From NCBI GenBank assembly GCA_964619725.1, contig CAZUFC010000022.1, positions 15,879-79,878 on the forward strand: a stretch of DNA of 64,000 bases, in the 5' to 3' direction. Positions 16,657 to 63,599 of the stretch are shown piece by piece (within the stretch, counting starts at the first letter, position 1; the number at the start of each line of letters is the position of its first letter). The position numbers and the translations under genes are program-made. The notes under the pieces are model-generated. The model did no database searches and was not told where the DNA came from. It was given only the letters and a program-made list of their open reading frames with translations. This DNA comes from an uncultured bacterium. Its GTDB lineage: Bacteria; CSSED10-310; CAZUFC01.

Positions 16657-16887
16657 CAGCCAGGGGGTCCAGCCAGGGGGTCAGAGCCCTTCGCAAACCC
16701 TCTGAATTCCGTTCTTGCTTCAGCCGTATGATCACTGACGCCCGCTGCACGAAAACATTAAAACCATTGATCCAACAGGGGCAGCCAGGGGGTCAGAGCC
16801 CTTCGCAAACCCTCTGAATTCCGTTCTTGCTTCAGCCGTATGATCACTGACGCCCCCTGCACGAATATATTAAAACCATTAACCCAA
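16657..16887. repeat. 112-bp tandem duplication carrying two REP-like motifs, plus a 13-bp stutter
   Basis: CAGCCAGGGGGTCAGAGCCCTTCGCAAACCCTCTGAATTCC... starts at both 16670 and 16782; CAGCCAGGGGGTC is doubled at 16657-16682. Confidence 0.95.
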
Positions 16888-17089
16888 AAATAACCCCAAA
16901 AGCCCCTGACACCTATAGCCGCTCAATCATCCATCCTTCCAACAACGCCTTCGTCCACTCGCCCACTCTTCCAATTTTCCTCCCTTCCGGGTTTATTTTT
17001 TCGAGAATATATTGTAAGTAAAAAGGTACTTGCCGTATCGAAACGACGAGTGTGCGGAACATAATAAGTAATTTGGAAGGGAGCGGATA

Positions 17090-18034
17090 ATGAAGAATTT
17101 ATTTTGCATTCACTTCATTGCATTATTTCTTTTAACGTGTTTTTGTCAGTCCGGCATGTTGAGCGCCGCCCGCGCAGATGTGTGCAGCAACAAGCCGGGG
17201 ATTGAATCCGAAGAGGATACAGCTTTTGCTTCGAGGTTTTCGACGGGTTCTCCCACGCCCAGTCCGACGCCAGTTCCGGGAACCTCGACGCCTACTCCAT
17301 TCGCTCAGTTGGAGCTTTTTCTGATGGACAACGATTATGATTCCGGTTATACCGATTTTGCCGTTATGTGTGATCCTGAAGATATCGAGATCGAGTTGGG
17401 ATATTTTTGTCCCACGGATTGTGTTCCGTCTGACGACACGACCGTCGGATGGGCTTTTGGCGGGGTTGATATAGGCATGCACTGGCAGTATTACGTTACG
17501 GAGCCTATTACGCTTCAATGCACGAGAGACATTCATTTCGATTTATGTTACGGATATGACGGCTGGAGCACTCACATGGTCGCTGATTTTTATGTCTACT
17601 GGCGTTGCGCGGACAATCACTACACGGTGGGATGCGACTCCATGACCGAATTCGGCCCTACAGGTTACTGGACGCCGGCCTGGAGCGACGTCGGCGTCGA
17701 CTGGCCTCTCGAATGCACCAGCCGTTCCGTATCAGGCTGGAAAATAATGCTCCCGTGCGGTTGCGATACCATTGAACTGATGATTGCGGTTCATTTCGAC
17801 GGTTTCGGCGATTATTACGGCATACGACACTTTCGCGTCTACCATAATTTGATGGAAATGCAGTGCGGTCCCGGTTTCAGAAATTGCGGAACGCCGGCCA
17901 CCGCCACTCCCGATCCTACGCCGACGGTCACTCCACAACCCATTCCCGCAACGGACGCTCGAGGTCTTCTGCCGCTTTTACTTTTATCAGGTATTCTCTT
18001 ATGGGTATGGACGAAAAAACGCAACCCCTGTTAA
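17090..18034 (+). CDS. Secreted Cys/aromatic-rich protein with Pro/Thr linkers and an IPTL-CTERM-like C-terminal anchor
   Basis: Signal peptide, two PT linkers, and a tail of PIPATDARG + hydrophobic helix + KKR. Confidence 0.8.
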   Translation: MKNLFCIHFIALFLLTCFCQSGMLSAARADVCSNKPGIESEEDTAFASRFSTGSPTPSPTPVPGTSTPTPFAQLELFLMDNDYDSGYTDFAVMCDPEDIEIELGYFCPTDCVPSDDTTVGWAFGGVDIGMHWQYYVTEPITLQCTRDIHFDLCYGYDGWSTHMVADFYVYWRCADNHYTVGCDSMTEFGPTGYWTPAWSDVGVDWPLECTSRSVSGWKIMLPCGCDTIELMIAVHFDGFGDYYGIRHFRVYHNLMEMQCGPGFRNCGTPATATPDPTPTVTPQPIPATDARGLLPLLLLSGILLWVWTKKRNPC

Positions 18035-18381
18035 AAACTATACTCATCCCCCCCGGACCGGCAACTAGTTTTTGTCCATAAGGTGATTTTTATGAACAGA
18101 CAAATCAGAAAAATGCTGCATGGGAAATCGGATTCGATAATCATTTTGTAATATCTGCGGTAACTTTTTCAAAAAAGGAATTTGAAGAAGGTCCATGCTC
18201 CGTAAGTCCATTGGTCAAAACAAGTCATAAAGAGGATGTAGCGGTTTGAACATAGTAAGCACACTCTTATCAAATATTTAACGGGAAAAATGTCTGCCGC
18301 CTCTTGACATATTAAAAGGAATCGGATAGAAAAAACGGATTTCGTCGCAGGGATACAGGAATTCCAAAGGAGGCGATAACC

Positions 18382-19845
18382 ATGATAGACCTGACGATTA
18401 ACGAGGAGCAGCTTGAGCGCACTGTGAAGCGGGCTCGAGAGCGAGAGATCATCATTCCCACATTTAAGCAGCAGAAGGATCCGACGCTTATTCCTGACAA
18501 GATCAAGGAAAAGCTTAAGAACATAGGATTATGGGACGTCAATTCTTATAATTTATTCAGGATAACGTGGAAGAACGAGCCGAAACCGAAAGGCGGTTTG
18601 TACGGCGGCGTGAACTGGCTTGAGATACCGAGCGCCATTTCCGGGGTGGAAGCCCGGATCATCACATTGGTGGGGAAATGGTTTCCGACGGGGTCTCACA
18701 AGGTCGGGGCCACATTCGGGTGTCTGGTCCCCCGTCTGATAACGGGACAGTTTGATCCGACGTATCAAAAGGCTGTATGGCCATCGACGGGTAATTATTG
18801 TCGAGGCGGAGCGTATGATTCTTCGCTGATGGCATGCGAATCCATCGCCATTTTGCCTGAAGAGATGAGCCGGGAGCGTTTTGAATGGTTGGAGACGGTT
18901 GCGGGTGAAGTCATTGCTACGCCCGGATGCGAGAGCAATGTAAAGGAAATCTACGACAAGTGCTGGGAATTGCGGAGAACCAGGGAAGACATCGTCATTT
19001 TCAACCAGTTTGACGAATTCGGCAATCATCTGTGGCATTACGACGTGACGGGACACGCCATGGAGGAAACGCTGCAGGAGATCATGAGCAACAAAGATCG
19101 ATGCGCAGGCGTTGTTTTGACTTCGGGCTCGTCCGGAACCATGGGCTGCGGCGATTACATCAAGGACATTTTCCCGGCGGCCAAGATCGCTGTCGGTGAG
19201 GCTCTGCAATGTCCCACATTGCTTTTGAACGGGTTTGGAGGACACAGGATTGAGGGTATCGGAGACAAGCATGTGCCCTGGATTCATAACGTAAGGAATA
19301 CTGATCTGGTGATGGCGATTGACGATGAACCGTGCATGAACATCGTTCGGTTGTTTAACGAACCGGCTGGTCAGAGATATCTGGTTGAGCAGGGCCTGGA
19401 TGAAAAGTTCGTCGAAAATCTCCCACTGTTCGGCATTTCCAGCATCGCCAATATGCTGATGGCCATTAAATTCGCTAAATATTACGAATTGGGTCATAAC
19501 GACATCGTTCTCACCGTATTCACCGATTCCATGGAACTTTACGGCAGCAGGCTGCACGAATTGAGAGAAAAATACGGGGAATATACGGAGAAAGATGCCG
19601 TCAGGGATTACAATCAGTTTCTGATGGGCTTGACGATCGACAACATGCTCGAATGCAATTTTTACGACCGTAAAAGAATCCACAACCTGAAATATTACAC
19701 CTGGATCGAACAGCAGCAGCGTAAAGTGGAAGACTTGAACGCTCAATGGTACGATTTTCCCGATTACTGGGACAACGTGCATGGTCAGACGGATGAAATT
19801 GACGAATTAATTATGGAATTCAACAAGAAAGTCGGACTTTTATAA
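18382..19845 (+). CDS. PLP-dependent enzyme (fold type II, cysteine synthase/TrpB-like)
   Basis: FPTGSHKVGA (PLP lysine), PSTGNYCRGG, GSSGT and HRIEGIG motifs; GGAGG RBS. Confidence 0.85.
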   Translation: MIDLTINEEQLERTVKRAREREIIIPTFKQQKDPTLIPDKIKEKLKNIGLWDVNSYNLFRITWKNEPKPKGGLYGGVNWLEIPSAISGVEARIITLVGKWFPTGSHKVGATFGCLVPRLITGQFDPTYQKAVWPSTGNYCRGGAYDSSLMACESIAILPEEMSRERFEWLETVAGEVIATPGCESNVKEIYDKCWELRRTREDIVIFNQFDEFGNHLWHYDVTGHAMEETLQEIMSNKDRCAGVVLTSGSSGTMGCGDYIKDIFPAAKIAVGEALQCPTLLLNGFGGHRIEGIGDKHVPWIHNVRNTDLVMAIDDEPCMNIVRLFNEPAGQRYLVEQGLDEKFVENLPLFGISSIANMLMAIKFAKYYELGHNDIVLTVFTDSMELYGSRLHELREKYGEYTEKDAVRDYNQFLMGLTIDNMLECNFYDRKRIHNLKYYTWIEQQQRKVEDLNAQWYDFPDYWDNVHGQTDEIDELIMEFNKKVGLL

Positions 19846-19857
19846 TGGAGGTTTAAA

Positions 19858-20811
19858 ATGAGGAGTTTTTTAGGCAGAGATATACTGTCATTGAAGAATA
19901 TAAACAGGGGCGAATTTTTCAGGATTTTTGAGATTTGCAACAGGTTTGCGCCTATTGCCAGAGACAGGAAGAATACTGATTTGCTCGCAGAGAAAACGTT
20001 ATTGACAGCTTTTTATCAGCCGAGCACCCGAACAAGAATGTCTACGGAAGCAGCCATGCACAGGTTGGGCGGCCATGTCCTCGGTTTCTCCGATTTCAAA
20101 ATGACCCGTGCGGGCGATTTTTACCAGGAATCAATCAAGGACACGATTTACATGCTGGAGTATTATGCTGACGTAATAGCCATGCGGCATTTCATGCAGG
20201 GAGCGCCGCAGGAAGCGGCCAAATGGTCCTCCGTTCCGATCATCAATTGCGGAGACGGATGGGGAGAGCATCCCACGCAGGTTTTGACGGATTTATACAC
20301 GATTTACACGGAAAAAGGCCGCCTGGACGACCTTAATTACCTCTGCGTAGGCGATATGCGCATGCGCACCATGCATTCCATAGGTTACGCCCTGACCCAG
20401 TTCGACGTGGAAGCTCAATTCGTTTCCCCCCCGGAAATGTCATTGGGCGATGACCTCAAGAAGGAATGGAACGATCTGAATCTTCGTTTTAAAGAGCTGG
20501 AGCATGTCGAGCAGGGGATAGCGGATGCCGACATTATCTACGTTGAACCGGTGGTGCAGGCCGATTACACCAAATCCAGGGTAGAAGCCGACGAAAAGAA
20601 AGGAAGAACCCCGGATAATTACAAAATAACGCTGGACCTCATCAAAAAGAAGGCGAAGTCAGACGTTATAGTCCTGCATTCTCTTCCCAGAATGGATGAA
20701 TTGACTCCTGACGTGGACCATACCCGTCACGCCAGGTACTGGACTGAAGCTTTCAACGGCGTAGTTCTGAGGATGGCATTATTGGCCCTGGTTCTCGGCG
20801 CCGTCGAATAA
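19858..20811 (+). CDS. Aspartate/ornithine carbamoyltransferase-family protein of uncertain substrate
   Basis: STRTR, HPTQ and HSLPR motifs present; the aspartate-specific R-x-Q-x-ER motif is replaced by EPVVQ. Confidence 0.88.
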   Translation: MRSFLGRDILSLKNINRGEFFRIFEICNRFAPIARDRKNTDLLAEKTLLTAFYQPSTRTRMSTEAAMHRLGGHVLGFSDFKMTRAGDFYQESIKDTIYMLEYYADVIAMRHFMQGAPQEAAKWSSVPIINCGDGWGEHPTQVLTDLYTIYTEKGRLDDLNYLCVGDMRMRTMHSIGYALTQFDVEAQFVSPPEMSLGDDLKKEWNDLNLRFKELEHVEQGIADADIIYVEPVVQADYTKSRVEADEKKGRTPDNYKITLDLIKKKAKSDVIVLHSLPRMDELTPDVDHTRHARYWTEAFNGVVLRMALLALVLGAVE

Positions 20812-20833
20812 AAATCGAATAAAATAAAAGATC

Positions 20834-20894
20834 GGCTGCGTCTCTTAAGTCCAATACGAATCGACTTTTTTTTTCGATCGGATGAGATGCAGCC
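20834..20894. terminator. Long hairpin between convergent genes (possible bidirectional terminator)
   Basis: GGCTGCGTCTC (20834) pairs with GAGATGCAGCC (20884-20894). Confidence 0.45.
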
Positions 20895-20924
20895 TTACTT
20901 TGTACCCGGTTTTTCCAGAAAAGT

Positions 20925-21507
20925 TCAGTTTTTATTTAAAATCAGCCGACGCAAGCTGAATAGAGCAAGAGAAATCAGGATTACGGATATTATTTTGCCT
21001 GAATGATTCAATGCGGGAATCGGCGGGGGGACAGGCGTGTTTGTCGGTTCAGGCGTAGTGGAAGGTGTAGAAGTGCAGGTTGCGGTAGGAGTTTTCGTGG
21101 GCGTCGGAGTAATGGTTGGAGATGACGTCGGCGTGGGTGACGGAAGGAGTGATGCGCCGTAATGAAAACCTATGTCTGCAACGCCTGAGTCGACAGCTTC
21201 ATCGGTCCTGGTCCATAGATTATTCATGCATGTTTCTCCGTTAGGACCTTCAAAACAGATATTTGCAGCCTGATCGCTTCCTGTATCGATGCATGGACTG
21301 TCATCAGCTTGCCCGGATGACTGCTGACTCAGATAAAAATCGCCTTCCGGGCCTGTTGCGATCAGCAACAAGAACCGTGTCGCCGCCCAAAGCCGCATCA
21401 ATTCCCTCCTGTATCGTAGGTTGATTGCCGGGAACGTGAATAATGCCGCCCGATGATGTTACCGTTAAAAAGATTAATAATGCCGCTGAAACCAACGAAA
21501 ATCTCAT
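20925..21507 (-). pseudogene. Internally deleted, frameshifted parallel beta-helix-type surface protein with an IPTL-CTERM-like tail
   Basis: ATG at 21507 behind GGAGGAG gives a signal peptide + IHVPGNQPTIQEGIDAALGGDTVLVA. This joins out of frame near 21360 to ATGPEGDFYLSQ...SPCIDTG, a PT linker and PIPALNHSG-TM-RR. Confidence 0.75.
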
Positions 21508-21539
21508 AACTCCTCCCGCGTATAATAAGAATGCCATAA

Positions 21540-21735
21540 AACCGCACTCGAATGCAATCTCAGTAATAGTTTTGCCCGGATTACCGATGAGCTTGGTCGC
21601 AGCTTTTTCCGCTCTCACCCTCTGTATATGCCTGGTCAGAGTCTCACCCGCCATGGCGCTGAAAATCCGATGAAAATGATAGCGTGAAAAATTAGCCGCT
21701 CCCGCAAGAACCTCCAATATAAGAACTCTTGACAT
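21540..21735 (-). pseudogene. AraC-family regulator fragment (HTH region only)
   Basis: LAGAANFSRYHFHRIFSAMAGET...RAEKAA...ITEIAFECGF, truncated in the second HTH. Confidence 0.8.
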
Positions 21736-21905
21736 ACCCTAGTCAACCAATTGATTTTAATAGATTTTTACTCTCACTAAATCGGCAAAATTATTGTGAA
21801 ATATTTTTGGATTTCACGACAAGCAATATTGATATGATTTGAACCGTGATCCGTTTTCATCAAAAAAATTCACAATTCTTTTCAGGCACATTGTCAGGAG
21901 CTCAG

Positions 21906-22173: not shown

Positions 22174-22269
22174 ATTTTTTATGTTTTCAATGCCTGTTAC
22201 CGATTCCCAGTTGTACGAATTGTAGCCTTAAAACACAGATATCTCATCAATACCGAAATCCAGCAATTC

Positions 22270-27861: not shown

Positions 27862-28025
27862 GTCTGCGGAGGGCTCTGACCCCGCTCCGGATACTTGATG
27901 AACCATGGCGGTTCTTTTTTCGTAATAGTTTGCGGAGGGCTCTGACCCCGCTCCGGATGCTTGATGAATGAAGGGGATCCTTTTTTCGTAATAGCTTGTG
28001 GAGTGCTCTTAACCTTTTTCGGATG
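27862..28025. repeat. 66-bp-period tandem repeat (2 intact + 1 degenerate REP-like motif)
   Basis: AGGGCTCTGACCCC at 27870 and 27936; degenerate AGTGCTCTTAACCT at 28002. Confidence 0.9.
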
Positions 28026-39744: not shown

Positions 39745-39890
39745 CCAAGCATCCAGAAAGGGGTCAGAGCCCTGCGGAAACCCTTGAATTTAAAAGGCAG
39801 AGCCCGGGGCAATCAGCATCCGCCATTCAGCTCCAAGCATTCAGAAAGGGGTCAGAGCCCTGCGGGAACCCTTGAATTTAAAGGACAGAG
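39745..39890. repeat. 88-bp-period direct repeat with two REP-like motifs
   Basis: CCAAGCAT(C/T)CAGAAAGGGGTCAGAGCCCTGCGG(A/G)AACCCTTGAATTTAAA occurs twice (cores at 39760 and 39848). Confidence 0.9.
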
Positions 39891-47183: not shown

Positions 47184-48296
47184 ATGAATGAACTAAGACG
47201 CAATCCTCTTTCCAGACAATGGACATGTTATCTGACGAACGTGGACTTCATGAATGAAATTCTGAAGGAACTGAAAAGAGGCGTAAATAACGCAAGCGAT
47301 TACAGCGAAGATAACGTTAAAAACTGTGTGTTCTGCCCGGGAAAAGAAGCAGAGACCCCGCCCACCATCATGATATATAAAAACGGAGTATTCTTCTACA
47401 GGCTTAAAGAAGGCTCAAAAATGCCCAGCGGCTGGGAAGTCCGCGTCATCCCGCAACAGCACCCCGTTTTTCAGGTCGAAGGCGAACTCAGCAGACGCGG
47501 AAGCCGTCTTTATGACATTATGGCCGCCAAGGGCGCCAATGAACTGATCATCAATCATCCGGACCACAATAAACATTTGCCCGCTATGAATGAACTAGAA
47601 ATGGCGAAAGTCCTCAAAACCGTCAAAGAACGATTCATAGACCTCTCTAAAGACAGGGAAATGGGCCATCCCATTTTTTTCATTAATCACGGATTGTCCG
47701 CAGGAGCCGTCTATTCTCATACTCACTCGGAAATTATAATCTCACCTTTCGTTCCGGAAAACACCAGAAAAGAACTGCAGGGCGCTAAGGACTGGTTCAA
47801 AATGAAAGAAAGATGCCTTTTCTGCGATATTATTGATGACGAAATCATCAAAATGGAAAAAAAACGCACTCATCAGATCATTACGATGAACAAAGACTTC
47901 ATGGCCTTCGTGCCCTTCTTCAGCGCCTATCCCTTCGAAATCTGGATCATCCCCGGAAAGCATGAATCTGACTATAAAAATATTACGGAAAACCAGATAA
48001 TATCAGCTTCCCAAATCCTCAATATCTGCATCACCCTCATCCGACGAGTCCTGGGAGACGTTCCCTTCAACCTAATCCTGCTCACTCAACCCAACAAAGT
48101 ATGGGGTATAGACCGGGGATACTGGCTGCGCATTGAAGACGACTGGCACTGGCGTTTCGCCATCCTGCCCCACCTCCCCGACCCCATCGATAAACTGAAA
48201 GGAATGTTCTACGGCACCGGCTCCAGAGTCAATCCGGTCCTCCCGGAACACGCAGCTCAAATTCTGAGAGATCAACTGGCGATCAGCGAAACATAA
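47184..48296 (+). CDS. galT: Galactose-1-phosphate uridylyltransferase-family protein
   Basis: ELRRNPLSRQW, CVFCPG.E, NHGLSAGA..SHTHS, CLFCD, PFEIWI.P..H and NPVLPE motifs. The HPHSQ motif is diverged, so the substrate is uncertain. Confidence 0.8.
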   Translation: MNELRRNPLSRQWTCYLTNVDFMNEILKELKRGVNNASDYSEDNVKNCVFCPGKEAETPPTIMIYKNGVFFYRLKEGSKMPSGWEVRVIPQQHPVFQVEGELSRRGSRLYDIMAAKGANELIINHPDHNKHLPAMNELEMAKVLKTVKERFIDLSKDREMGHPIFFINHGLSAGAVYSHTHSEIIISPFVPENTRKELQGAKDWFKMKERCLFCDIIDDEIIKMEKKRTHQIITMNKDFMAFVPFFSAYPFEIWIIPGKHESDYKNITENQIISASQILNICITLIRRVLGDVPFNLILLTQPNKVWGIDRGYWLRIEDDWHWRFAILPHLPDPIDKLKGMFYGTGSRVNPVLPEHAAQILRDQLAISET

Positions 48297-48304: not shown

Positions 48305-48325
48305 TTTGCGAAGGGCTCTGACCCT
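48305..48325 (+). repeat. Single REP-like motif
   Basis: TTTGCGAAGGGCTCTGACCCT directly after the galT stop. Confidence 0.85.
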
Positions 48326-52861: not shown

Positions 52862-53854
52862 ATGAAAACAGTAAAAATAATCGGACGGATTTTCGCCGGA
52901 CTGCTCTTCGGAATACTAATATTCGCTATTGGCGCTGCCGTTTTCTGGGGTCCTGGCAAAACCCGCGCTCGCGTTTACGATCTGCTCCCTTTTTTCAATG
53001 CGTTCGATTCCAAATTAACCGGCGCTGCGAATTATGAATATGAAGAGTTCAGCTCGGAAATGTATCTGAACGGACAAAATGTCCATTTGATTTATTCTCA
53101 GACGCCGCATTCGCCTCAAAGAACTATAGATCATTATGCCGCGACTATACCCGCCGACAGGGGTTGCATATTGAAAAGGACGAGTGAAACAGACGGCATG
53201 CTTGTTTTCCAGGAAACGGATAAGGTCCATGTCATAAAGGCCGACTGGGATGAAATAGCCCAAAAAACCAACATAACCAAGGCGTGGACCAGGTTGAACA
53301 TCAGCGCCGACTACGATGACGAGCGGTTGGTTGAACAGGCCGCCCGTGTTCTTCAGGACATAGGTTTCTCGGAAAATGAAAAACGCTTTTTCCGTTCCAT
53401 ATGCGATAATGCATTGACCCTGATGGACGGAACAGGAATGGAATTCCTTTCCAATCCGAAATATGCTCCTCTATGGCCCTACCTGGAAGCTCTCAGCCGG
53501 CAAGCCGACGGAAAAGATAAGCCCGGCAAAGATGTTGAGGTTTTGCCGCCCAGACCTCCGGGATCGGTCAGGACGCTCTCCATGGAGCAGCATACCCCTG
53601 CAGGGGGACTACTGGCGGCAGCCGGATACAAATCGTCGGCAAACTTGACCTCAGTGGATAATTACTACGTTCACGCCATGCAGGCAGAAGGATGGAGGGC
53701 TTTCGGCGGACCGGACATGCTGTCCAAGGACCCTTATTCGAGAAGATCGTATCACTTTGTGAAAGAAAGCGGCGAAAACTGCATTCTGATGATCAGGGAA
53801 AACCAAAGCGACGATACCGTAAGGAGTCTGGCCGTATATTTCAAGCATAATTGA
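52862..53854 (+). CDS. Hypothetical membrane-anchored protein (Tad-locus associated)
   Basis: 330 aa, N-terminal TM, GGAGG RBS. Confidence 0.8.
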   Translation: MKTVKIIGRIFAGLLFGILIFAIGAAVFWGPGKTRARVYDLLPFFNAFDSKLTGAANYEYEEFSSEMYLNGQNVHLIYSQTPHSPQRTIDHYAATIPADRGCILKRTSETDGMLVFQETDKVHVIKADWDEIAQKTNITKAWTRLNISADYDDERLVEQAARVLQDIGFSENEKRFFRSICDNALTLMDGTGMEFLSNPKYAPLWPYLEALSRQADGKDKPGKDVEVLPPRPPGSVRTLSMEQHTPAGGLLAAAGYKSSANLTSVDNYYVHAMQAEGWRAFGGPDMLSKDPYSRRSYHFVKESGENCILMIRENQSDDTVRSLAVYFKHN

Positions 53855-53987
53855 AGGCTCTGATCAAAATACCCGTCCATGGAAAGCTTAACCTGCTCTA
53901 TGCCTTCTTTGGATGAAAATCAACATGAAATGGAGGAACAGGAGACCAAATCATCGGAAGAATGTTCTTAAACCCGCGTCAACCCTA

Positions 53988-54668
53988 TCAGCCGGATTTC
54001 GATTTCTGAGGTTCTTCATGTTTTCTCTTCATCATTTTAATGAACTCATCGCTTCCGTAGTATTTTTTTCTGAGTCCTTTACGGGTTTCTTCCATTTCAT
54101 CAGGCGACATAGGGAGGCCGATAATTTCGCGGATAAAAACCTGACGGCGTTCTTCCGGGGTGTCGCCCAGAGAGATGAAAAATCCGTCTTCCGTAACTTT
54201 AACGAACGCCTGTCTTCCAAAGGCATAGAAACAAATGGTGGAGTTTTCGTAATCCAGGGGATTCTCGACTATACCGGCTTTTTTAGGATTCCCGTAAACG
54301 TATCGGATGACTTTTCGCATATATTCGACCGTATCGATTATGGTCGAATAAAAACGCTCGCCCCATAGATGACCCGTTCGATTCTGCGCCTTGTTGAACA
54401 ATTCAGCTATCCGGGCGTTCACGTACTGCATGAAAACACTGATGTTCTTTAACGGTGTATTAATTATCATGTGATAATGGGTCGCCATAAGCACAAGGTG
54501 AAGTATCTGAACTTCGTAAATCTTGCTCGCCTTCATCAGAACTTCCGCTACCGACTCGATCAGAGCTCTCTGCACCTTCTTCTGATCGAACCGGTATTCC
54601 TTGTTGTTGGTCCGCGTGGACACGTGGTAGGGATGTTCCGATTGCTTTATTCGTTTAGGTCGCGGCAT
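53988..54668 (-). mobile_element. REP-associated tyrosine transposase (RAYT, Y1 HUH nuclease), copy 1
   Basis: MPR..R....PYHV..R.NN, LM.THYHM (HUH), RTGHLW..RF.S and YVYGNPKKAG.V..P.DY..S motifs; GGAGG RBS. Confidence 0.88.
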
Positions 54669-54812
54669 TTTTCCTCCTTTCTTCTAATGAAATTTAATCA
54701 ATAACGAAATGAGAAGCATTCATAACGTAAAACATAGATCGATTTCCGGTACCGTACCGCTCGAAGAATGAGCAAAATAGATGCCGGCCCAATGATATGA
54801 AGCGCTCAGAAT

Positions 54813-55370
54813 GGGGTCAGAGCCCTCCGCAACACATTCAATCACGTATAAATCATTGTTTCATGAGCAGCGACATTGGGCTGCATTTTTTTTTATCGCG
54901 TATTTTTTTTTAGAAAGTTACAGAGTTTTTGCTTTTGGAATAAGGTATTTCTTGACTTAAAATTCAAAATTTTTGAATACCCAGAAGCCGAATCGTCGCA
55001 AAAGAAGGCTAGGCTCAAACAAAGGGGGGTCAAATTTTTTGAATATTTTTCAAAAAATTTGAATTACGTAAAATGAGTTTTGTTAATCTATACTCAGTAA
55101 AGGGATTCCGTCGTTTACTGAAAATGAACAAAACACGAGATAGTTTTTAGGTTCGTTGAACGATCCATCGTCAAGAGGATTGGATTCTCTGCGAATGGTA
55201 TTTTCGACTGGAGGTCTTGCTGGGTTTAAGTTCTCCGACAATTTACGGCACAGATCGAAGTTCATCATTCATAGATTCGTATAAGCGACAGAGAATGCCT
55301 GTCAATGGTTTGCGAAGCATCAGCTAAACAACAATCGAGAAATTGGTGATTTGCGAAGGGCTCTGACCCC
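54813..55370. repeat. Inverted pair of REP-like motifs enclosing ~520 bp of AT-rich DNA upstream of the RAYT (repeated at 57192-57749)
   Basis: GGGGTCAGAGCCCTCCGCAA (54813) and TTGCGAAGGGCTCTGACCCC (ends 55370) form a 20-bp inverted repeat with 1 mismatch. Confidence 0.9.
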
Positions 55371-55374
55371 TAGG

Positions 55375-56233
55375 CAATGCGTTCGATTCCAAATTAACCG
55401 GCGCCGCTAATTATGAATATGAAGAGTTCAGCTCGGAAATGTATCTGAACGGACAAAATGTCCATTTGATTTATTCTCAGACGCCGCATTCGCCTCAAAG
55501 AACTATAGATCATTATGCCGCGACTATACCCGCCGACAGGGGTTGCATATTGAAAAGGACGAGTGAAACAGACGGCATGCTTGTTTTCCAGGAAACGGAT
55601 AAGGTCCATGTCATAAAGGCCGACTGGGATGAAATAGCCCAAAAAACCAACATAACCAAGGCGTGGACCAGGTTGAACATCAGCGCCGACTACGATGACG
55701 AGCGGTTGGTTGAACAGGCCGCCCGTGTTCTTCAGGACATAGGTTTCTCGGAAAATGAAAAACGCTTTTTCCGTTCCATATGCGATAATGCATTGACCCT
55801 GATGGACGGAACAGGAATGGAATTCCTTTCCAATCCGAAATATGCTCCTCTATGGCCCTACCTGGAAGCTCTCAGCCGGCAAGCCGACGGAAAAGATAAG
55901 CCCGGCAAAGATGTTGAGGTTTTGCCGCCCAGACCTCCGGGATCGGTCAGGACGCTCTCCATGGAGCAGCATACCCCTGCAGGGGGACTACTGGCGGCAG
56001 CCGGATACAAATCGTCGGCAAACTTGACCTCAGTGGATAATTACTACGTTCACGCCATGCAGGCAGAAGGATGGAGGGCTTTCGGCGGACCGGACATGCT
56101 GTCCAAGGACCCTTATTCGAGAAGATCGTATCACTTTGTGAAAGAAAGCGGCGAAAACTGCATTCTGATGATCAGGGAAAACCAAAGCGACGATACCGTA
56201 AGGAGTCTGGCCGTATATTTCAAGCATAATTGA
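55375..56233 (+). pseudogene. 5'-truncated duplicate of the 52862-53854 gene (lacks the TM anchor; residual ORF from 55439)
   Basis: Identical translation from MYLNGQ to the stop; the first ~45 codons are missing. Confidence 0.85.
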
Positions 56234-56366
56234 AGGCTCTGATCAAAATACCCGTCCATGGAAAGCTTAACCTGCTCTATGCCTTCTTTGGATGAAAATC
56301 AACATGAAATGGAGGAACAGGAGACCAAATCATCGGAAGAATGTTCTTAAACCCGCGTCAACCCTA

Positions 56367-57047
56367 TCAGCCGGATTTCGATTTCTGAGGTTCTTCATGT
56401 TTTCTCTTCATCATTTTAATGAACTCATCGCTTCCGTAGTATTTTTTTCTGAGTCCTTTACGGGTTTCTTCCATTTCATCAGGCGACATAGGGAGGCCGA
56501 TAATTTCGCGGATAAAAACCTGACGGCGTTCTTCCGGGGTGTCGCCCAGAGAGATGAAAAATCCGTCTTCCGTAACTTTAACGAACGCCTGTCTTCCAAA
56601 GGCATAGAAACAAATGGTGGAGTTTTCGTAATCCAGGGGATTCTCGACTATACCGGCTTTTTTAGGATTCCCGTAAACGTATCGGATGACTTTTCGCATA
56701 TATTCGACCGTATCGATTATGGTCGAATAAAAACGCTCGCCCCATAGATGACCCGTTCGATTCTGCGCCTTGTTGAACAATTCAGCTATCCGGGCGTTCA
56801 CGTACTGCATGAAAACACTGATGTTCTTTAACGGTGTATTAATTATCATGTGATAATGGGTCGCCATAAGCACAAGGTGAAGTATCTGAACTTCGTAAAT
56901 CTTGCTCGCCTTCATCAGAACTTCCGCTACCGACTCGATCAGAGCTCTCTGCACCTTCTTCTGATCGAACCGGTATTCCTTGTTGTTGGTCCGCGTGGAC
57001 ACGTGGTAGGGATGTTCCGATTGCTTTATTCGTTTAGGTCGCGGCAT
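56367..57047 (-). mobile_element. RAYT transposase, copy 2 (identical protein)
   Basis: Same 226-aa translation as 53988-54668. Confidence 0.88.
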
Positions 57048-57735
57048 TTTTCCTCCTTTCTTCTAATGAAATTTAATCAATAACGAAATGAGAAGCATTC
57101 ATAACGTAAAACATAGATCGATTTCCGGTACCGTACCGCTCGAAGAATGAGCAAAATAGATGCCGGCCCAATGATATGAAGCGCTCAGAATGGGGTCAGA
57201 GCCCTCCGCAACACATTCAATCACGTATAAATCATTGTTTCATGAGCAGCGACATTGGGCTGCATTTTTTTTTATCGCGTATTTTTTTTTAGAAAGTTAC
57301 AGAGTTTTTGCTTTTGGAATAAGGTATTTCTTGACTTAAAATTCAAAATTTTTGAATACCCAGAAGCCGAATCGTCGCAAAAGAAGGCTAGGCTCAAACA
57401 AAGGGGGGTCAAATTTTTTGAATATTTTTCAAAAAATTTGAATTACGTAAAATGAGTTTTGTTAATCTATACTCAGTAAAGGGATTCCGTCGTTTACTGA
57501 AAATGAACAAAACACGAGATAGTTTTTAGGTTCGTTGAACGATCCATCGTCAAGAGGATTGGATTCTCTGCGAATGGTATTTTCGACTGGAGGTCTTGCT
57601 GGGTTTAAGTTCTCCGACAATTTACGGCACAGATCGAAGTTCATCATTCATAGATTCGTATAAGCGACAGAGAATGCCTGTCAATGGTTTGCGAAGCATC
57701 AGCTAAACAACAATCGAGAAATTGGTGATTTGCGA

Positions 57736-57797
57736 AGGGCTCTGACCCCTAGGCAGACCCCTAGGCAGACCAAGGGCTCTGACCCCTGGGCAGACCC
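57736..57797 (+). repeat. REP-like doublet with 12-bp stutters
   Basis: AGGGCTCT-GACCCCTAGGCA-GACCCCTAGGCA-GACC-AAGGGCTCT-GACCCCTGGGCA-GACCC. Confidence 0.92.
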
Positions 57798-57861
57798 TTT
57801 TGGAACCGAAATTTTGAATTTCTTGACGCGGATTTTCGGTATCTTTAATATCTGTTTTGCG

Positions 57862-60800
57862 ATGAAGCCTTTGATCAGAATTTTTGGAGCAAGACAGCAT
57901 AATTTAAAGGGATTTGACCTGGATTTGCCTTTGAACCGGCTGATAGCAGTAACGGGCGTTAGCGGATCAGGCAAGTCGAGTTTAGCGTTTGAGACGTTAT
58001 ATGCTGAGGGGCAGCGTCGTTATGTGGAGACGTTTTCGCCTTATATGCGACAGTTTCTGGACCGTATGGATCGTCCGCGAGTTGATGAGATTCAGGGCAT
58101 TCCGCCTGCTATTGCTATTGATCAGGTCAATCCGGTCAAGACTTCACGATCTACCGTCGGGACTATGACGGAGATAAACGATTTGCTGAAGCTGCTTTAT
58201 GCTCGTCTAGGCAGGTTATTTTGCCGCAATTGCGGCCGGGAAGTATTCCGCGAATCGCCGGAGATTGTTTATGAGCGTTTAAAGGAGCATTCAGACGGGC
58301 GAATAACGATTGCCGTATCCTATCCTGTTGAGGAGGCTTATGAAAAAACGGCCGAATATTTGATTCGGAACGGTTTTCGTCGAATTCTGATTGACGGAAA
58401 GCCGTTTCTGCTGGAGGAAGACCCGACAGTGATAGAAAACAGAACTGCCGCGGACGTCATTATCGACCGTTTTGAAATAAAGGCAAACAAAGATCGAGAA
58501 AGGATCGTAGAGTCTATCGAGCAGGCCTATTACCTTGGCCAGGGGCAAGCCAAGGTTCTGACGGAAGACGGAGGTGAATTGTCCTTCAGTAGAAAATTTC
58601 ATTGTGCTGAATGCAATATTGACTATCCTGAGCCTAATCCCAATCTTTTTTCATTCAACAGTCCGCTGGGCGCATGTCCGGAGTGCGAGGGATTCGGGAA
58701 GATAATCGGGATCAGTCCTGAATTGGTTGTACCGAATCCTGAACTGACGATAGAGGAAGGCGCTGTCAAGCCCTGGGATGTCCCGGTAGCCCGCTATGAA
58801 AGGCAGCAATTGATGCAGATGTGCCGAAAACACGGCATACCGACGGATAAGCCTTACAGGACGCTGACTGATGAACAGAAAAGGATCATATTCGAGGGCG
58901 ATGAGGAATTTTACGGGATATATGATTTTTTCCAATGGCTGGAAAAGAAGAAATACAAGATGCACGTCAGGGTCTTTCTGGCGCGTTATCGTTCCTATAG
59001 TCAGTGTCCGTCATGCCGGGGCAGACGTTTGAAACCGGAGGCTCTTCTTTTCAGGATCAACGGATACAACATTCACGACCTGGCTTTAGTGTCTATCGAT
59101 GACCTGCTGCATCTGTTCAAAGATGAAATAGCGGAAATAACGAAGGATGAAGCGTCACAGACTATCTATAAAGAAATTGCCGGGAGACTGCAATATCTTA
59201 CGGATGCAGGAGTAGGCTATCTTACGCTGGACCGTCAATCAAGAACGCTGTCCGGCGGAGAGGTGGAACGAGTCAATTTAACCACTGCATTGGGCTCTGC
59301 GCTCGTCAATACCCTGTTCGTTCTGGATGAACCCAGCATAGGACTTCATCCTCGCGACACGGACAGATTGATCGGCATTTTGAAGAATCTGAGGAACAGG
59401 GGCAATACTGTGCTGGTCGTAGAACATGATGCATCAGTGATCAAAGCGGCGGATCAGATTGTAGACATGGGACCGGAAAGCGGGGAACGCGGCGGTTCGG
59501 TCATTTTTCAAGGGAAGTTCGAGGAACTGCTGAAATGCCGGGAATCTCTCACAGGACGCTATCTTTCCGGCGACATACCGCTGCCTTTACCGGAAAAACG
59601 AAGAAAAACGAAGCCGGGAAACTTCATTGGGATAAAGGGAGCGTCTCAACATAACCTGAAGAATATCGACGTAGACATTCCATTGAATTGCCTGGTATGC
59701 ATCACCGGCGTATCCGGTTCAGGCAAAAGCACTCTGATGAACGATGTTTTGTATCCCGCCATCAGGAAGGCGAAGGGCGATCCGACGCTGCAAGCAGGGA
59801 AGCATGACGAAATAACGGGAGCGGATAGAATTGACAATGCCGTTCTGATTGATCAGTCGCCTATATCGAAATCATCGCGAACTACGCCTGTGACTGTATC
59901 CAAAGCTTTCGATCATATTCGAAAATTATACGCCGGCGTTCCAGAATCGATAAAACGAAATTACAAACCGGGTCATTTTTCTTTTAATTCCAGAAGAGCT
60001 CAATGTCCCACCTGCAAAGGCGAAGGGTACGAAATCCTTGAAATGCAATTTCTGGCTGACATACGTTTTCGATGCCCGGACTGCGAAGGAAAACGTTACA
60101 TTCCCGAAGTTCTGGAAGTAAAATACAAGGGTAAAAGCATAGCGGAAACGCTGGATATGAGCGTTGACGAGGCGTTGAAATTTTTCAGCGAAGAAAAGGA
60201 GATAGTCAATAAATTACGCCCTGTAGTTCGGCTTGGTCTGGGATATCTGACGCTCGGTCAGCCCCTAAACATGCTGTCTGGCGGGGAATCGCAAAGGTTG
60301 AAACTGATAAAATTTCTGGGCCGTTCACGGAAGAACAGAACGCTGTTTCTTCTTGACGAACCCACGACAGGACTGCATTTCAACGATATAGATCATCTTC
60401 TGAAGACTCTGGAGCATCTTATTCAAAAGGGGAATTCCGTCGTCGTCATAGAACATAACCTGCAGGTCATCCGTTGGGCCGATCATATCATTGATCTGGG
60501 TCCGGACGGGGGGGATGCAGGCGGGTACGTCACGGCGAGCGGCGCGCCGGAGCTAATAGCTGACCGTAAGAATTCTCATACAGGCAAATATTTGAAGGCG
60601 TTTATACGGGATTCCAGGAATCCTTTTCAGACCGAAGAACCCTTTTTGCCGTCTAGCTCCTTTCCGGTAAAATCAAGTTCAAACGGGAGCATAGTCGTAT
60701 CAGGAGCGTGCGAAAACAATTTGAAAAACGTCTCGATCGAATTTCCGGTCAATAAAATGACGACGGTCACTGGAATAAGCGGCTCAGGAAAATCGACCCT

Positions 60801-63462
60801 GGTATTCGATATTTTGTTTGCGGAAGGACAAAGGCGCTACATTGAAAGCCTTAATGCATACGCTAGACAATTCATCAAGCAGCTCAAAAAACCTGATATC
60901 GATTTCATCTCAGGAATTCCCCCTACCGTGGCGATAGAGCAGGGACTTTCCCGCGGCGGCAGGCGCTCGACGGTAGCCACGGTATCGGAAGTCTATGATT
61001 TTCTTCGTCTGCTTTTTTCAAAAGCCGGAGAACAATTCTGCCATCAGTGCGGCGCTCCGGTGATGGAACAGACCCCGGAAAAACTGGGAGACTTGATCCT
61101 TAAAAAATTCAAAAAAAATGATATCACCATCGCAGCACCGGTCATCGTAGGGCGAAAAGGTTTTCACAAAGAGGTTTTTGAATATCTGAAAAAGAAAAAT
61201 CATAAAAAAGCATTTGTAAACGGTGAGTTACGAGAAATAACGCCGACTTCTCGACTCGACAGATACAGGCTGCATGATATATCAGCCGTGATCCGGCGAC
61301 TGAAGGCCTCACCTCGTAACCGCACAGATATAGTCGATGCGATATGGGCAGCGGTGAATCTGTCCGGGGGAGAAGTACAAATACACACCCCTGCAGATTC
61401 ATCTTTTCATCTTTATTCGACACGTCTTTTCTGCAGAAAATGCAATATAGGCTTTGCGGAACTGGAACCCAGGACATTCTCGTTCAACAGTAAATACGGG
61501 GCCTGTCCCGAATGTTCCGGGACAGGATGCGTTTCTGTTATCTCTCCTGACCTGCTTGTAAAAAACGAAGAAGAGACGCTGGAGGGCGATGCTCTTGCCA
61601 TAAATATCAAAACCTGGTTTTCCCGCCGTCCGCTTAAGTACATCAGAGCCCTCATGAAGCAAGAGCATGCATTGGATTTAAACAAGCCGCTGAAGGCTTT
61701 TTCACAAGAAGAACGGGATATTCTGTTTTATGGAAGAAATGATGGATTCTCTGGTCTCGTCAATATTTTGAAGGAAGAAATAGCGCGATTCAGGTATCCC
61801 AAATACGCAAGATTTTTAAAAAGATTCCTGTTAGAGAAACAATGTCCGGCGTGTGAAGGACTGCGGTTGAAACCCTCATCGTTGGCCGTGCAAATTCTCG
61901 ATATGAACATCGCTGACATTTTGCATAAAACGGTATCAGAAGCCAGGCAGGTTCTGCAGAAGATAAAACTGACCGGAAGGCGGGGAGCAGCGGCAGAAGA
62001 AATCATCCCCGAAATGGCCTCCCGGTTGATGTTCATGGAAGAGGTAGGGCTGGGATACCTGACGCTTGATCGCGGCATAAGGACGTTATCCGGCGGCGAA
62101 TCGCAGAGAATTCGGCTGGCGGCTCAACTCGGCAGCAATCTACGGGGAGTCTGCTACATCCTGGATGAGCCGACCATAGGATTACACAGGAAAGACAACA
62201 TGAGGCTGATCAATGTCCTTAGGCTTCTGCAGCAGAAGGGCAATACTGTGGTGGTGGTCGAACATGACGAAGAAACGATCCGTTCAAGCGACCATATCAT
62301 CGATTTAGGACCGCAGGGCGGCGCTTTCGGTGGGGAGCTCGTATCTTCAGGCACTGTTAAAGAGATACTGAATAATAAAAATTCTAAAACGGCGATATGC
62401 CTAAGAAAGCAGGCTGAAAGAAAAACTATTCCGAAACGGAAAACAAAACGGCGTAATATACCCAAAATAAGAATCAAGCGTGCCGGAACCCGCAATCTCA
62501 AAAACGTAAGCGTTTCCATACCGCAGGGGGCTGTAACGTGCGTTTGCGGAGTATCGGGATCGGGAAAGAGCTCCCTCGTTCAGGATACGCTTTATCCATT
62601 AATGGTCAATCATCTGAGAAAAATGCCCATTCCGGAATATACACGGGGCAGACTCGAATGTGACGGACATATCAAAAGAGTTCTTTTCGTGGACCAATCG
62701 CCTATAGGCAGAACTCCGCGATCAACTCCCGCCACTTACGTGGGTTTCTTCGACGATATTCGAAAGCTGTATGCTTCCCTGCCGGAATCGGTTATGCGAG
62801 GATACAAGCCCGGTCGATTTTCTTTCAACGTAAAAGAAGGATATTGCCCGAAATGCAAAGGACAGGGAAGAATAAAGGTGGAAATGAAATTTCTGCCGGA
62901 TGTCTATGTTCCCTGCGAAATATGCCGGGGAAGACGTTACAATATGCAAACGCTCGATATCCGGTACAGGGGAAAAGATATTTCTCAGATACTGGATATG
63001 ACCATGGAAGAGGCTGCCGGTTTTTTCTCGTTTGCTCCATCCATATCAAAATATCTGGAAATTCTAAAGGAAATCGGGCTTGGTTATTTAAAACTGGGAC
63101 AGGGCAGCAATACTCTCTCAGGAGGAGAAGCCCAGAGGATAAAGTTATGTTCCGAACTGGGAAAAGCCGGCTCCATGACCACTTTATATCTCCTGGACGA
63201 ACCCACCACAGGCCTGCACAGCTCAGACATCAAAAAACTGACGGCGGTACTAAGAAAACTGGCTCAAAAGGGCCATACCATAGTGGTTATAGAACATAAC
63301 CTGGAATTCATCCTGGAGTCGGATTACCTCATAGACATAGGACCCGAAGGCGGCGAACAGGGCGGCAAAATAACGGCCAGAGGTTACCTGGATAACCTTC
63401 TCAAAAAAAATGGTCCGCAGTCCCATACGCTCCATTATCTGAGGAAAGAAGTATATGGGTAG
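57862..63462 (+). CDS. uvrA: Excinuclease ABC subunit A, double-length (two fused UvrA units)
   Basis: Four Walker A (GxSGSGKS) and four LSGGE/DEP sets plus zinc fingers. Start placed at ATG 57862 (MKPLIRIFGARQHNLK), because the upstream extension merely translates REP DNA. Confidence 0.95.
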   Translation: MKPLIRIFGARQHNLKGFDLDLPLNRLIAVTGVSGSGKSSLAFETLYAEGQRRYVETFSPYMRQFLDRMDRPRVDEIQGIPPAIAIDQVNPVKTSRSTVGTMTEINDLLKLLYARLGRLFCRNCGREVFRESPEIVYERLKEHSDGRITIAVSYPVEEAYEKTAEYLIRNGFRRILIDGKPFLLEEDPTVIENRTAADVIIDRFEIKANKDRERIVESIEQAYYLGQGQAKVLTEDGGELSFSRKFHCAECNIDYPEPNPNLFSFNSPLGACPECEGFGKIIGISPELVVPNPELTIEEGAVKPWDVPVARYERQQLMQMCRKHGIPTDKPYRTLTDEQKRIIFEGDEEFYGIYDFFQWLEKKKYKMHVRVFLARYRSYSQCPSCRGRRLKPEALLFRINGYNIHDLALVSIDDLLHLFKDEIAEITKDEASQTIYKEIAGRLQYLTDAGVGYLTLDRQSRTLSGGEVERVNLTTALGSALVNTLFVLDEPSIGLHPRDTDRLIGILKNLRNRGNTVLVVEHDASVIKAADQIVDMGPESGERGGSVIFQGKFEELLKCRESLTGRYLSGDIPLPLPEKRRKTKPGNFIGIKGASQHNLKNIDVDIPLNCLVCITGVSGSGKSTLMNDVLYPAIRKAKGDPTLQAGKHDEITGADRIDNAVLIDQSPISKSSRTTPVTVSKAFDHIRKLYAGVPESIKRNYKPGHFSFNSRRAQCPTCKGEGYEILEMQFLADIRFRCPDCEGKRYIPEVLEVKYKGKSIAETLDMSVDEALKFFSEEKEIVNKLRPVVRLGLGYLTLGQPLNMLSGGESQRLKLIKFLGRSRKNRTLFLLDEPTTGLHFNDIDHLLKTLEHLIQKGNSVVVIEHNLQVIRWADHIIDLGPDGGDAGGYVTASGAPELIADRKNSHTGKYLKAFIRDSRNPFQTEEPFLPSSSFPVKSSSNGSIVVSGACENNLKNVSIEFPVNKMTTVTGISGSGKSTLVFDILFAEGQRRYIESLNAYARQFIKQLKKPDIDFISGIPPTVAIEQGLSRGGRRSTVATVSEVYDFLRLLFSKAGEQFCHQCGAPVMEQTPEKLGDLILKKFKKNDITIAAPVIVGRKGFHKEVFEYLKKKNHKKAFVNGELREITPTSRLDRYRLHDISAVIRRLKASPRNRTDIVDAIWAAVNLSGGEVQIHTPADSSFHLYSTRLFCRKCNIGFAELEPRTFSFNSKYGACPECSGTGCVSVISPDLLVKNEEETLEGDALAINIKTWFSRRPLKYIRALMKQEHALDLNKPLKAFSQEERDILFYGRNDGFSGLVNILKEEIARFRYPKYARFLKRFLLEKQCPACEGLRLKPSSLAVQILDMNIADILHKTVSEARQVLQKIKLTGRRGAAAEEIIPEMASRLMFMEEVGLGYLTLDRGIRTLSGGESQRIRLAAQLGSNLRGVCYILDEPTIGLHRKDNMRLINVLRLLQQKGNTVVVVEHDEETIRSSDHIIDLGPQGGAFGGELVSSGTVKEILNNKNSKTAICLRKQAERKTIPKRKTKRRNIPKIRIKRAGTRNLKNVSVSIPQGAVTCVCGVSGSGKSSLVQDTLYPLMVNHLRKMPIPEYTRGRLECDGHIKRVLFVDQSPIGRTPRSTPATYVGFFDDIRKLYASLPESVMRGYKPGRFSFNVKEGYCPKCKGQGRIKVEMKFLPDVYVPCEICRGRRYNMQTLDIRYRGKDISQILDMTMEEAAGFFSFAPSISKYLEILKEIGLGYLKLGQGSNTLSGGEAQRIKLCSELGKAGSMTTLYLLDEPTTGLHSSDIKKLTAVLRKLAQKGHTIVVIEHNLEFILESDYLIDIGPEGGEQGGKITARGYLDNLLKKNGPQSHTLHYLRKEVYG

Positions 63463-63473
63463 AGTGTTTGCCC

Positions 63474-63599
63474 AGGGCTCTGACCCCGCTTTGAACCCTT
63501 GCTGGATGCTGGATTACGGATACCCTTGGGGCTTTCTATTGGATTCGCAAGAGTTTCTGAAGGGCTCTGACCCCGTTCTGGACCGTTCTGGAGCGTTCT
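63474..63599 (+). repeat. Two REP-like motifs (63474, 63561) with a 10-bp stutter
   Basis: AGGGCTCTGACCCC twice; the second is followed by GTTCTG-GACC-GTTCTG-GAGC-GTTCT. Confidence 0.9.

Follow-up and report, generated by a model that had tools for sequence, protein, structure and literature searches.

Tandem duplications with breakpoints anchored in the loop of a RAYT-linked REP-type repeat from an uncultured bacterium

The sequence analysed here, hereafter the window, is a stretch of 64,000 nucleotides from contig CAZUFC010000022.1 of an uncultured bacterium of the GTDB lineage CSSED10-310 (assembly GCA_964619725.1). It contains 13 exact copies of the 14-mer AGGGCTCTGACCCC and one further copy with one mismatch, together with a gene for a 226-aa protein resembling REP-associated tyrosine transposases (RAYTs), which is present twice owing to a 2,379-bp tandem duplication. 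The 14-mer is the core of a repeat of the repetitive extragenic palindromic (REP) type. The initial annotation had proposed that at this repeat the sequence breaks or restarts 6-7 nt after the motif GACCCC, and all five places that it cited read as described. Genome-wide, the repeats are strong hot spots for perfect, young tandem duplications, whose breakpoints are anchored at one bond within the loop of the repeat, between CTCT and GACCCC, at its mirror position on the opposite strand, and some 12-14 nt beyond.

Placement of the duplication breakpoints

The features of the window and of related loci are listed in Table 1. Short tandem repetitions ('stutters') with units of 12, 13 and 10 nt follow REP cores in the window; the exact run of the last, at 63573-63599, begins 4 nt into GACCCC. 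The genome searched is a draft of 9,173,508 bases in 344 contigs, with 47% G+C, an estimated completeness of 90.9% and a contamination of 6.5%, in which 225 copies of the motif were found when up to two substitutions were allowed. Exact tandem runs with a period of 8-45 nt and at least two copies were collected from -60 to +80 around these copies, low-complexity runs being removed, and the same windows shifted by -300, +300, -600 and +600 nt were used as controls. There were 34 unique runs near the motif, against 4, 11, 4 and 6 in the controls.

The bond between CTCT and GACCCC in the loop is the exact starting point of nine of the 34 runs, whose first base is the G of GACCCC, and 16 runs start no more than 4 nt from it; not one of the 25 control runs begins at the corresponding position. 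The breakpoints are thus placed non-randomly relative to the motif across the genome, as had been supposed. The nine loop-anchored runs have periods of 12 nt (six loci), 13, 17 and 20 nt, and the microhomology at their junctions amounts to 0, 0, 0, 0, 1, 1, 2, 3 and 4 nt. Their six-nucleotide spacer (N6) is the same within a locus and different between loci. A mirror class, which the initial annotation does not mention, comprises six runs, such as TGCGAAGGGCTC repeated twice, which end at positions -1 to +1, as none of the 25 control runs does. On the opposite strand these read as GTCA followed, across the breakpoint, by two copies of GAGCCC-N6, with just TG as shared microhomology. On inspection, no consistent dinucleotide was seen at the distal breakpoints.

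About one motif copy in eight has a tandem run. Exact tandem runs with a period of at least 10 nt number 234 in the whole genome and 31 of them lie near the motif, while the 140-nt windows around the 225 copies make up, by rough arithmetic, about 0.3% of the genome.

The copies of the 2,379-bp duplication, matched as 52996-55376 against 55375-57755, differ at two of 2,381 positions (53026 and 53029). The junction reads GACCCCTAGG, then the shared dinucleotide CA, then ATGCG, giving a microhomology of 2 nt. The chance that one duplication of at least 200 bp would fall at exactly this offset is, by rough arithmetic, of the order of 0.003. The open reading frame (ORF) that contains the left end, 52862-53854, encodes 330 aa and matches no Pfam or NCBIfam family; its truncated second copy encodes 264 aa.

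Altogether 64 tandem repeats with periods of 60-12,000 bp were found in the genome; most are coding repeats, and eight are bounded by the motif. For the larger arrays, the point at which similarity ends was measured from the loop bond in pairs of copies of the same orientation (Table 1). In five arrays (two in the window and one each on contigs C12, C70 and C139) the final copy, read in the orientation of the motif, carries a short stutter, and the array on C57 ends with a partial extra unit. A position 6-7 nt after GACCCC is indeed the commonest end for short and long duplications alike, but it is not fixed, since the units measure 12, 13, 17 or 20 nt and the arrays end anywhere from +6 to +20. 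This position is the mode of a zone, and the conserved point that the initial annotation had placed there is instead the invariant bond inside the motif, together with its mirror class.

A family of 66-nt units bearing the REP core forms tandem arrays on four contigs (C52:16091-16551, C54:14273-14738, C83:29344-29843 and C139:15240-15444). Several of these arrays are bordered by runs of N or terminate in long stutters of 12-14 nt.

Table 1. Locations of the repeats, duplications and RAYT-like genes. Coordinates refer to the window unless a contig is named; ends of similarity are counted from the loop bond.
Feature	Position	Strand	Remark
RAYT-like Y1/HUH transposase gene, 226 aa, in unit 1	53988..54668	-	Pfam Y1_Tnp
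Second RAYT-like gene, identical, in unit 2	56367..57047	-	same Pfam Y1_Tnp match
Unit 1 of 2,379-bp tandem duplication	52996..55374	+	left end inside ORF 52862-53854; right end GACCCCTAGG(CA)
Unit 2 of 2,379-bp tandem duplication	55375..57755	+	holds ORF 55439-56233, a 5'-truncated copy of ORF 52862-53854
12-nt stutter, GACCCCTAGGCA x2.3	57744..57771	+	begins exactly at the bond between CTCT and GACCCC; only after unit 2, not unit 1
Second REP core, AAGGGCTCTGACCCCTGGGCAGACCC	57772..57798	+	older 25-nt duplicate of first core, one mismatch
13-nt stutter, GACCCCCTGGCTG x2.1	16656..16682	-	begins exactly at the bond between CTCT and GACCCC
112-bp-period tandem duplication, REP and 5' flank	16670..16887	-	upstream copy ends with GACCCCCTGGCTG, then 13-nt filler CCCCTGTTGGATC
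10-nt stutter, CCGTTCTGGA x2.7	63573..63599	+	just 3' of REP core 63561-63574
REP core, right end of unit 1	55357..55370	+	twin at 57736-57749 leads into the 12-nt stutter
REP core 145 nt upstream of RAYT start, same orientation as gene	54813..54826	-	twin 57192-57205
Single REP core, one mismatch (AGGGCTCTGACCCT)	48312..48325	+	16 nt past stop of ORF 47184-48296
REP core without stutter	63474..63487	+	12 nt past stop of ORF 57730-63462
Two direct-orientation REP cores, 88 nt apart	39760..39861	-	50 nt shared around core
66-nt tandem array, 2.2 copies, one REP core per unit (27870, 27936)	27865..28009	+	
Similarity ends at +12	2,379-bp case; C27, period 43; C57, period 32; C83, twice; C118		
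Similarity ends at +13	112-bp case; C83		
Similarity ends at +14	C12, period 171; C70, period 65		
Similarity ends at +16 to +20	C42; C52; C139; C61		
Similarity ends at +6 to +9	C12, period 29; C54		
RAYT-like loci in the genome	C12:95588; C35:6577; C22:70175 and 72554; C27:20686; C5:25002		
Two-sided RAYT homologues in other genomes	Haliea metagenome-assembled genome (MAG) (L136); Gemmatimonadota MAG (L139); gammaproteobacterial MAG (L140)		

The repeat and its association with RAYT-like genes

At up to two mismatches, the 14 matches to AGGGCTCTGACCCC in the window compare with 0.34 expected by chance, and none of 100 shuffled sequences reached 14. The genome as a whole has 102 exact copies among its 225, dispersed over many contigs. 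The per-position consensus of the repeat is CAAGGG-TTTSCGA-AGGG-CTCTGAC-CCC-YTYGCRRA-CCC-TT, a 16-bp palindrome around the 7-nt loop CTCTGAC with the stem (N)AGGG/CCCT(N); the core is near-palindromic by itself (AGGGCTC-T-GACCCCT). At position +20 the consensus has G in 41% and A in 41% of copies, followed by ACCC at +21 to +24, so that a GACCC located 12 nt past GACCCC is partly built into the element. For this reason the restart of GACCC after GACCCC-TGGGCA, which had been read as a breakpoint, is not retained as one.

The high copy number, the dispersal and the extragenic placement are those of a REP. All 14 copies in the window lie outside ORFs of at least 150 aa or just 3' of stop codons, except for one in the 5' extension of ORF 57730-63462, and relatives of the product of this ORF align only from 57901 on. 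Canonical REPs carry the tetranucleotide GT[AG]G at the 5' foot, while classes 2.6 and 3 are without it (PMC6006769); it is absent here, the consensus 5' flank being CAAGGGTTTSCGA. The hairpins predicted for the window copies are weak, with folding energies of -4.8 to -7.4 kcal/mol (z from -0.83 to +0.55), no better than those of shuffled sequences, and the double copy at 57722-57800 alone reaches -16 kcal/mol (z = -1.77). No covariation between the flanks was detected in 161 copies, in which 5.02 of 12 positions pair with the copy's own partner and 4.98 with shuffled partners. Across 93 independent loci, 25 pairings of 5' and 3' flank types were shared, compared with 16.6 +/- 5.5 expected; 29 of 300 shuffles reached 25. 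Conservation is seen in the 5' flank, which reads GTTTGCGA at 23 of the 93 loci, while the 3' flank varies far more, as would be expected of a process that repeatedly rewrites the 3' side. A scan of the window against Rfam returned no families.

The 226-aa protein matches Pfam Y1_Tnp (PF01797) with 40.9 bits (E = 2.6e-10, cut-off 23). It contains the HUH motif (as HYH) and a tyrosine within RYVYGNP, aligned with the HUH and tyrosine of its homologues. Among NCBIfam families it scores highest against REP_Tyr_transpos, but its 72.2 bits fall short of the cut-off of 80. The gene lacks the features of an insertion sequence of the IS200/IS605 type: its score against transpos_IS200 is low (25 bits, cut-off 55), the homology between paralogues stops at the stop codon, and a 3' hairpin is lacking.

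Nine Y1_Tnp matches were found in the genome; the six best fall into five loci and the other three are weak. Motif copies lie 172-876 nt upstream of each of the five RAYT loci, whereas none occurs within 3 kb of the three weak matches, in agreement with the linkage of repeat and RAYT proposed at the outset. The loci comprise five diverged paralogues, with 77-92% DNA identity over about 1.1 kb and very similar 226-aa cores, and one recent duplicate. Their DNA homology begins about 400 bp before the start codon and ends with the stop codon. Bertels and Rainey describe RAYTs as single-copy per genome; instead of one RAYT copy per REP family, five paralogous loci and a duplicate are present here.

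A scan of one genome per species with the exact 14-mer gave at least 133 stretches, whose taxonomic spread was sampled and not counted. Many of the matches listed resemble REPs, with the form AAAGGGCTCTGACCCCTTT and frequently a reverse-complement partner, and the hosts among them include Stenotrophomonas, Halieaceae, Woeseiaceae, Gemmatimonadota, Massilia and others. Also among the matches listed, inverted pairs of the core, of the form GGGGTCAGAGCCCTT...AAGGGCTCTGACCCC, are present in many distant bacteria (for example L021, L038, L099, L107 and L123) and are often bracketed by A-runs and T-runs in a manner resembling bidirectional terminators.

When the RAYT of the window was searched in five core-bearing genomes, matches were obtained in all five. 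In three of these genomes, copies of the same 13-nt core stand in inverted orientation on either side of the homologue (Table 1); the three proteins are 46-53% identical among themselves and 23-26% identical to the window protein. The repeats that flank them have stutters in the same place (GACCCCTTAATTG three times, GACCCTGCGCTACTG twice and GACCCCTTGATCT twice), and further stutters there are GACCCCTTATACTG followed by GACCCCTTAAACTG and GACCCCTTTGTT followed by GACCCCTTTGTG. Of the 36 exact runs collected around 194 de-duplicated core copies of other genomes, 11 have their start between -3 and +6, against 3 of 27 and 2 of 12 in controls; the starts are less sharply placed than in the present genome. 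Parahaliea aestuarii and a Stenotrophomonas maltophilia genome have the core and weak RAYT-type matches (28-33% identity, 30-37 bits); among the copies examined, a small and uneven sample, stutters are rare and the loop bond is the start of none of them.

The motif was absent from all 30 genomes taken as relatives and from all 13 other genomes of the phylum. Metagenome loci matching the neighbouring protein (57901-59400) reach at best 57% amino acid identity, and among 80 such loci none has the core; no orthologous empty sites were available.

Origin of the duplications

The stutters may be produced by a RAYT that nicks the repeat, allows limited resynthesis and rejoins the strand; we favour this origin over replication slippage, though tentatively and at somewhat less than even confidence. 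The RAYT would nick single-stranded REP DNA at the loop bond and hold the 5' G covalently. A host polymerase would then extend the free 3'-OH and re-copy the 3' arm to just past the foot of the hairpin (12-14 nt), whereupon the new 3'-OH would attack the phosphotyrosine and reseal the strand with no need for homology. After replication this would leave a tandem duplication starting exactly at the nick, and repeated cycles would give three to six copies. The near-palindromic core would permit the same event on the other strand, with mirror-image duplications as the outcome. In the 2,379-bp event the released 3' end (...TAGGCA) would have re-primed 2.4 kb upstream through the 2-nt microhomology, doubling the RAYT gene.

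Such a course is compatible with described chemistry. In the parts of PMC3479197 and PMC8266576 that deal with catalysis, TnpAREP cleaves single-stranded DNA, the 5' end stays on the tyrosine and any 3'-OH resolves the bond; for HUH enzymes generally, the relevant part of PMC8266576 describes extension of the 3'-OH and rejoining through the tyrosine-linked 5' end. The placement of the breakpoints, the linkage to RAYT genes and the recurrence in other lineages are observed and speak for this origin; that the RAYT is the agent here, and that the breakpoints reflect this chemistry, is what we infer, and the putative nick between CTCT and GACCCC is deduced from the positions of the breakpoints. 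On inspection, unit lengths correspond to GAC plus the 3' arm plus 1-5 nt, which fits the 12 nt seen here and the 13-14 nt seen where stems differ. The repeat GACCC...GACCC built into the element cannot account for the anchored runs, since six of the nine have microhomology of 0-1 nt and the mirror class shares only TG.

Several observations weigh against an origin by RAYT nicking. The repeat is without GTAG and the anchored bond, T-G, lies inside the loop, unlike the sites of RAYTs studied so far; according to the sections of PMC3479197 and PMC8266576 on cleavage sites, the studied enzymes cut outside the hairpin, at C-T or C-A, as set by a 5' GTAG guide. Downstream of the RAYT genes, no motif copy was found within 2 kb at any of the five loci, and the arrangement differs from a classical two-sided REPtron. 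The mirror events lie in part within related 66-nt arrays (C52, C83) and may share common descent, leaving perhaps about four independent ones. Short duplications that lack microhomology abound in other parts of the genome as well and so are not diagnostic, and the ends of the larger arrays are spread widely, as given above. The range of about 10 bp to kilobases, ascribed to the duplications in the initial annotation, holds at its upper end through a single event: 12 tandem duplications in the genome have periods of 200 bp or more, and the 2,379-bp case, which ends at +6 after GACCCC, is the only one among them bounded by the motif.

Replication slippage or template switching without RAYT catalysis is a strong contender, if a somewhat less probable one. 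The nascent 3' end would slip back by one period, or re-pair at a more distant upstream site through microhomology, and copy the template again, the substrate being direct repeats about 12 nt apart (GACCCC-N6-RACCC and AAGGG-N6/7-AAGGG) combined with a hairpin or bound protein that stalls the polymerase. The RACCC of the consensus at +20 to +24 matches the modal period of 12 nt, and a third GACC-like block stands 0-3 nt past the end of six of the ten loop-anchored duplications. Slippage is likewise suggested by the 2 nt of microhomology at the kilobase junction, the partly templated filler at the 112-bp junction, and whole-hairpin duplications of 21-43 nt, which fit a loop-out of the nascent hairpin. 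It is also suggested by messy stutters in several registers (C83 at 29843, C139 at 15372, and C118) and by the other genomes, where the starts spread over -3 to +6 and a microhomology of 3-4 nt (TCTG) is present in several runs. Slippage does not readily explain, however, why nine starts fall on one bond with so little microhomology in six of them, nor why the AAGGG repeats and the mirror class are in different registers. The weakness of the hairpins and the lack of covariation between the flanks make a purely structural block unconvincing. No bias relative to GC skew was found either, the oriented skew being positive for six and negative for five 3'-side events and four against two for 5'-side events, although skew at contig level is a poor proxy for the direction of replication and the split counts for little either way.

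It is improbable that GACCCC-N6 units are kept by selection, for instance as phased sites for the RAYT or another protein, about one helical turn apart, or as terminator variants, so that the pattern would reflect retention and not breakage. GACCCC blocks at a phasing of 12-14 nt in four lineages, the intergenic or stop-proximal position of all 14 window copies and the T-runs after many copies in other genomes would suit it. The N6 sequences, identical within and different between loci, indicate instead recent local duplications and not a conserved array; moreover, only about an eighth of the copies have repeated units, and, with no Rfam match in the window, no evidence of a protein or RNA family was found.

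Still less probable is that the stutters are target-site duplications left by an excised insertion sequence that targets REPs, or the work of another loop-specific nuclease. Insertion sequences that target REP loops exist, ISPpu9 being one, and filling in of a 12-nt staggered cut would yield such a duplication; but no occupied site was seen, and no loop-bond 12-mer recurs 0.7-15 kb away outside the motif context, although fragmented contigs could hide insertion sequences.

The stretch was also found as contigs in four public runs, all from one microbial-mat study, of which run X1 is possibly the source sample. A contig from an independent assembly of X1 is identical over 57726-63700, including the stutters at 57744 and 63573. 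The X1 contigs have a depth of 13-16.5 over the 2,379-bp unit and of 8.5 in the flank, about a twofold difference, and at 55405 and 55408 both variants are present in X1 and X2 contigs at about half depth each. The agreement with X1 excludes a gross artefact, though X1 is not fully independent. No indel variants of the stutters are listed in the run contigs; contigs drop rare variants, so this has no bearing on polymorphism. An artefact of assembly, which a fragmented draft of 344 contigs might suggest, is hardly credible given the identical X1 contig, the doubled depth, the two variants at half depth and the occurrence of the same stutters in unrelated assemblies.

As for known systems, rolling-circle Rep proteins and relaxases nick within the loop of a short hairpin. 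Here, unlike in those systems, no replicon is involved, the protein is a relative of Y1 transposases and the loop nick would be known from breakpoints only. In Salmonella, REPs are said to have been found by Shyamala, Schneider and Ames in 1990 at the join points of spontaneous kilobase tandem duplications with both ends in REPs, whereas the 2,379-bp duplication has only one end in a REP, its other end being within an unrelated gene.

The initial annotation had not known a local gene-amplification activity of this kind to be described. A model of nicking, priming and strand transfer for REPs and bacterial interspersed mosaic elements (BIMEs) is, however, in print: Ton-Hoang et al. (2012) proposed that nicking, followed by elongation from the 3'-OH and transfer of the strand to the tyrosine-linked 5' phosphate, adds a BIME unit and can capture flanking genes, and stated that the mechanism and frequency of REP/BIME amplification in vivo are unknown (PMC3333891). 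The mechanism proposed here would be that amplification in miniature, with the nick moved into the loop. The E. coli REP/BIME-TnpAREP system resembles the present one in its extragenic hairpin repeat of more than 100 copies, its adjoining Y1/HUH gene and its near-identical tandem copies at a locus. It differs in several respects: here the 5' GTAG is absent, and the loop and top of the stem are conserved instead of its foot; the anchored bond is T-G in the loop, not C-T beside the hairpin; the added units are mostly half-hairpins of 12-14 nt and not whole BIMEs; and there are five diverged RAYT loci and one duplicate, with REP copies only upstream of the gene.

In Pseudomonas fluorescens SBW25, 16 tandem clusters of REPs or REPINs (paired REPs) that include their flanks were ascribed to 'a second mechanism' in the portion of Bertels and Rainey (2011, PMC3116915) concerned with them. 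As with the REPINs of SBW25, the core forms inverted pairs in other lineages found here. That portion gives no map of the breakpoints and no description of half-hairpin stutters, and the RAYTs there are described as single-copy; in the present genome singlets and direct arrays predominate. Transposases of IS200/IS605 elements (IS608, ISDra2) belong to the same Pfam family, Y1_Tnp, and the corresponding parts of PMC3479197 and PMC8266576 describe their recognition of hairpins in single-stranded DNA and their 5'-phosphotyrosine chemistry; unlike these elements, the present one has no pair of subterminal hairpins, and its conserved DNA unit stops at the stop codon.

In a literature search that covered open papers, the GTAG-less core, its spread across phyla and loop-anchored half-hairpin stutters were not found. 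The motif string itself matched mouse primers only and is absent from two supplement texts of PMC6006769.

A wider proposal can be made, though we consider it less likely than not. The stutters would be footprints of abortive cycles, resembling rolling-circle replication, by a loop-nicking RAYT closer in action to plasmid and viral Rep proteins than to IS200/IS605. The GTAG-less REP class would extend over at least four distant lineages whose RAYTs are about 25% identical, genomes would record the cut site used in vivo, and the RAYT would amplify neighbouring DNA, including its own gene.

Since REPs were described about 40 years ago, their mode of multiplication and the cellular role of RAYTs have been open questions, although cleavage and strand transfer are seen in vitro. 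If the duplications are RAYT footprints, they would predict, to the base, the cut site of an unstudied GTAG-less REP class across phyla, give direct genomic support to amplification by nicking, priming and rejoining, and offer an example of a RAYT that doubled its own gene and truncated a neighbour. If slippage alone is at work, the repeat would be a sequence-determined duplication hot spot, of relevance to the assembly and annotation of such genomes.

Other repeats and the neighbouring protein

Separate and abundant repeats phased in hexamers (CCGATA/CCGACC-type, for example CGATACCGACCC two to three times) are unrelated to the REP motif and often lie near contig ends. Of the 234 exact tandem runs whose period is 10 nt or more, 62 are of this kind; examples are C10:112289-112321, C165:192-231, C46:23388-23487 and C293:3711-3783. 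A minisatellite of 32-33 nt, with units like CTTTTGGGCTGGTTGGGGGATTCAGTTGGGTTG, is found at several contig ends, for example C22:1-154 (upstream of the window), C36:1-87, C128:24-91, C140:1-87, C149:1-80 and C246:1-88, and is possibly a repeat family that breaks assemblies.

The large ORF 57901-63462, located 3' of the 12-nt stutter, encodes a widely conserved protein. Relatives of its first 500 residues were found in 556 metagenome stretches, and the 80 loci kept from these show 44-57% identity.

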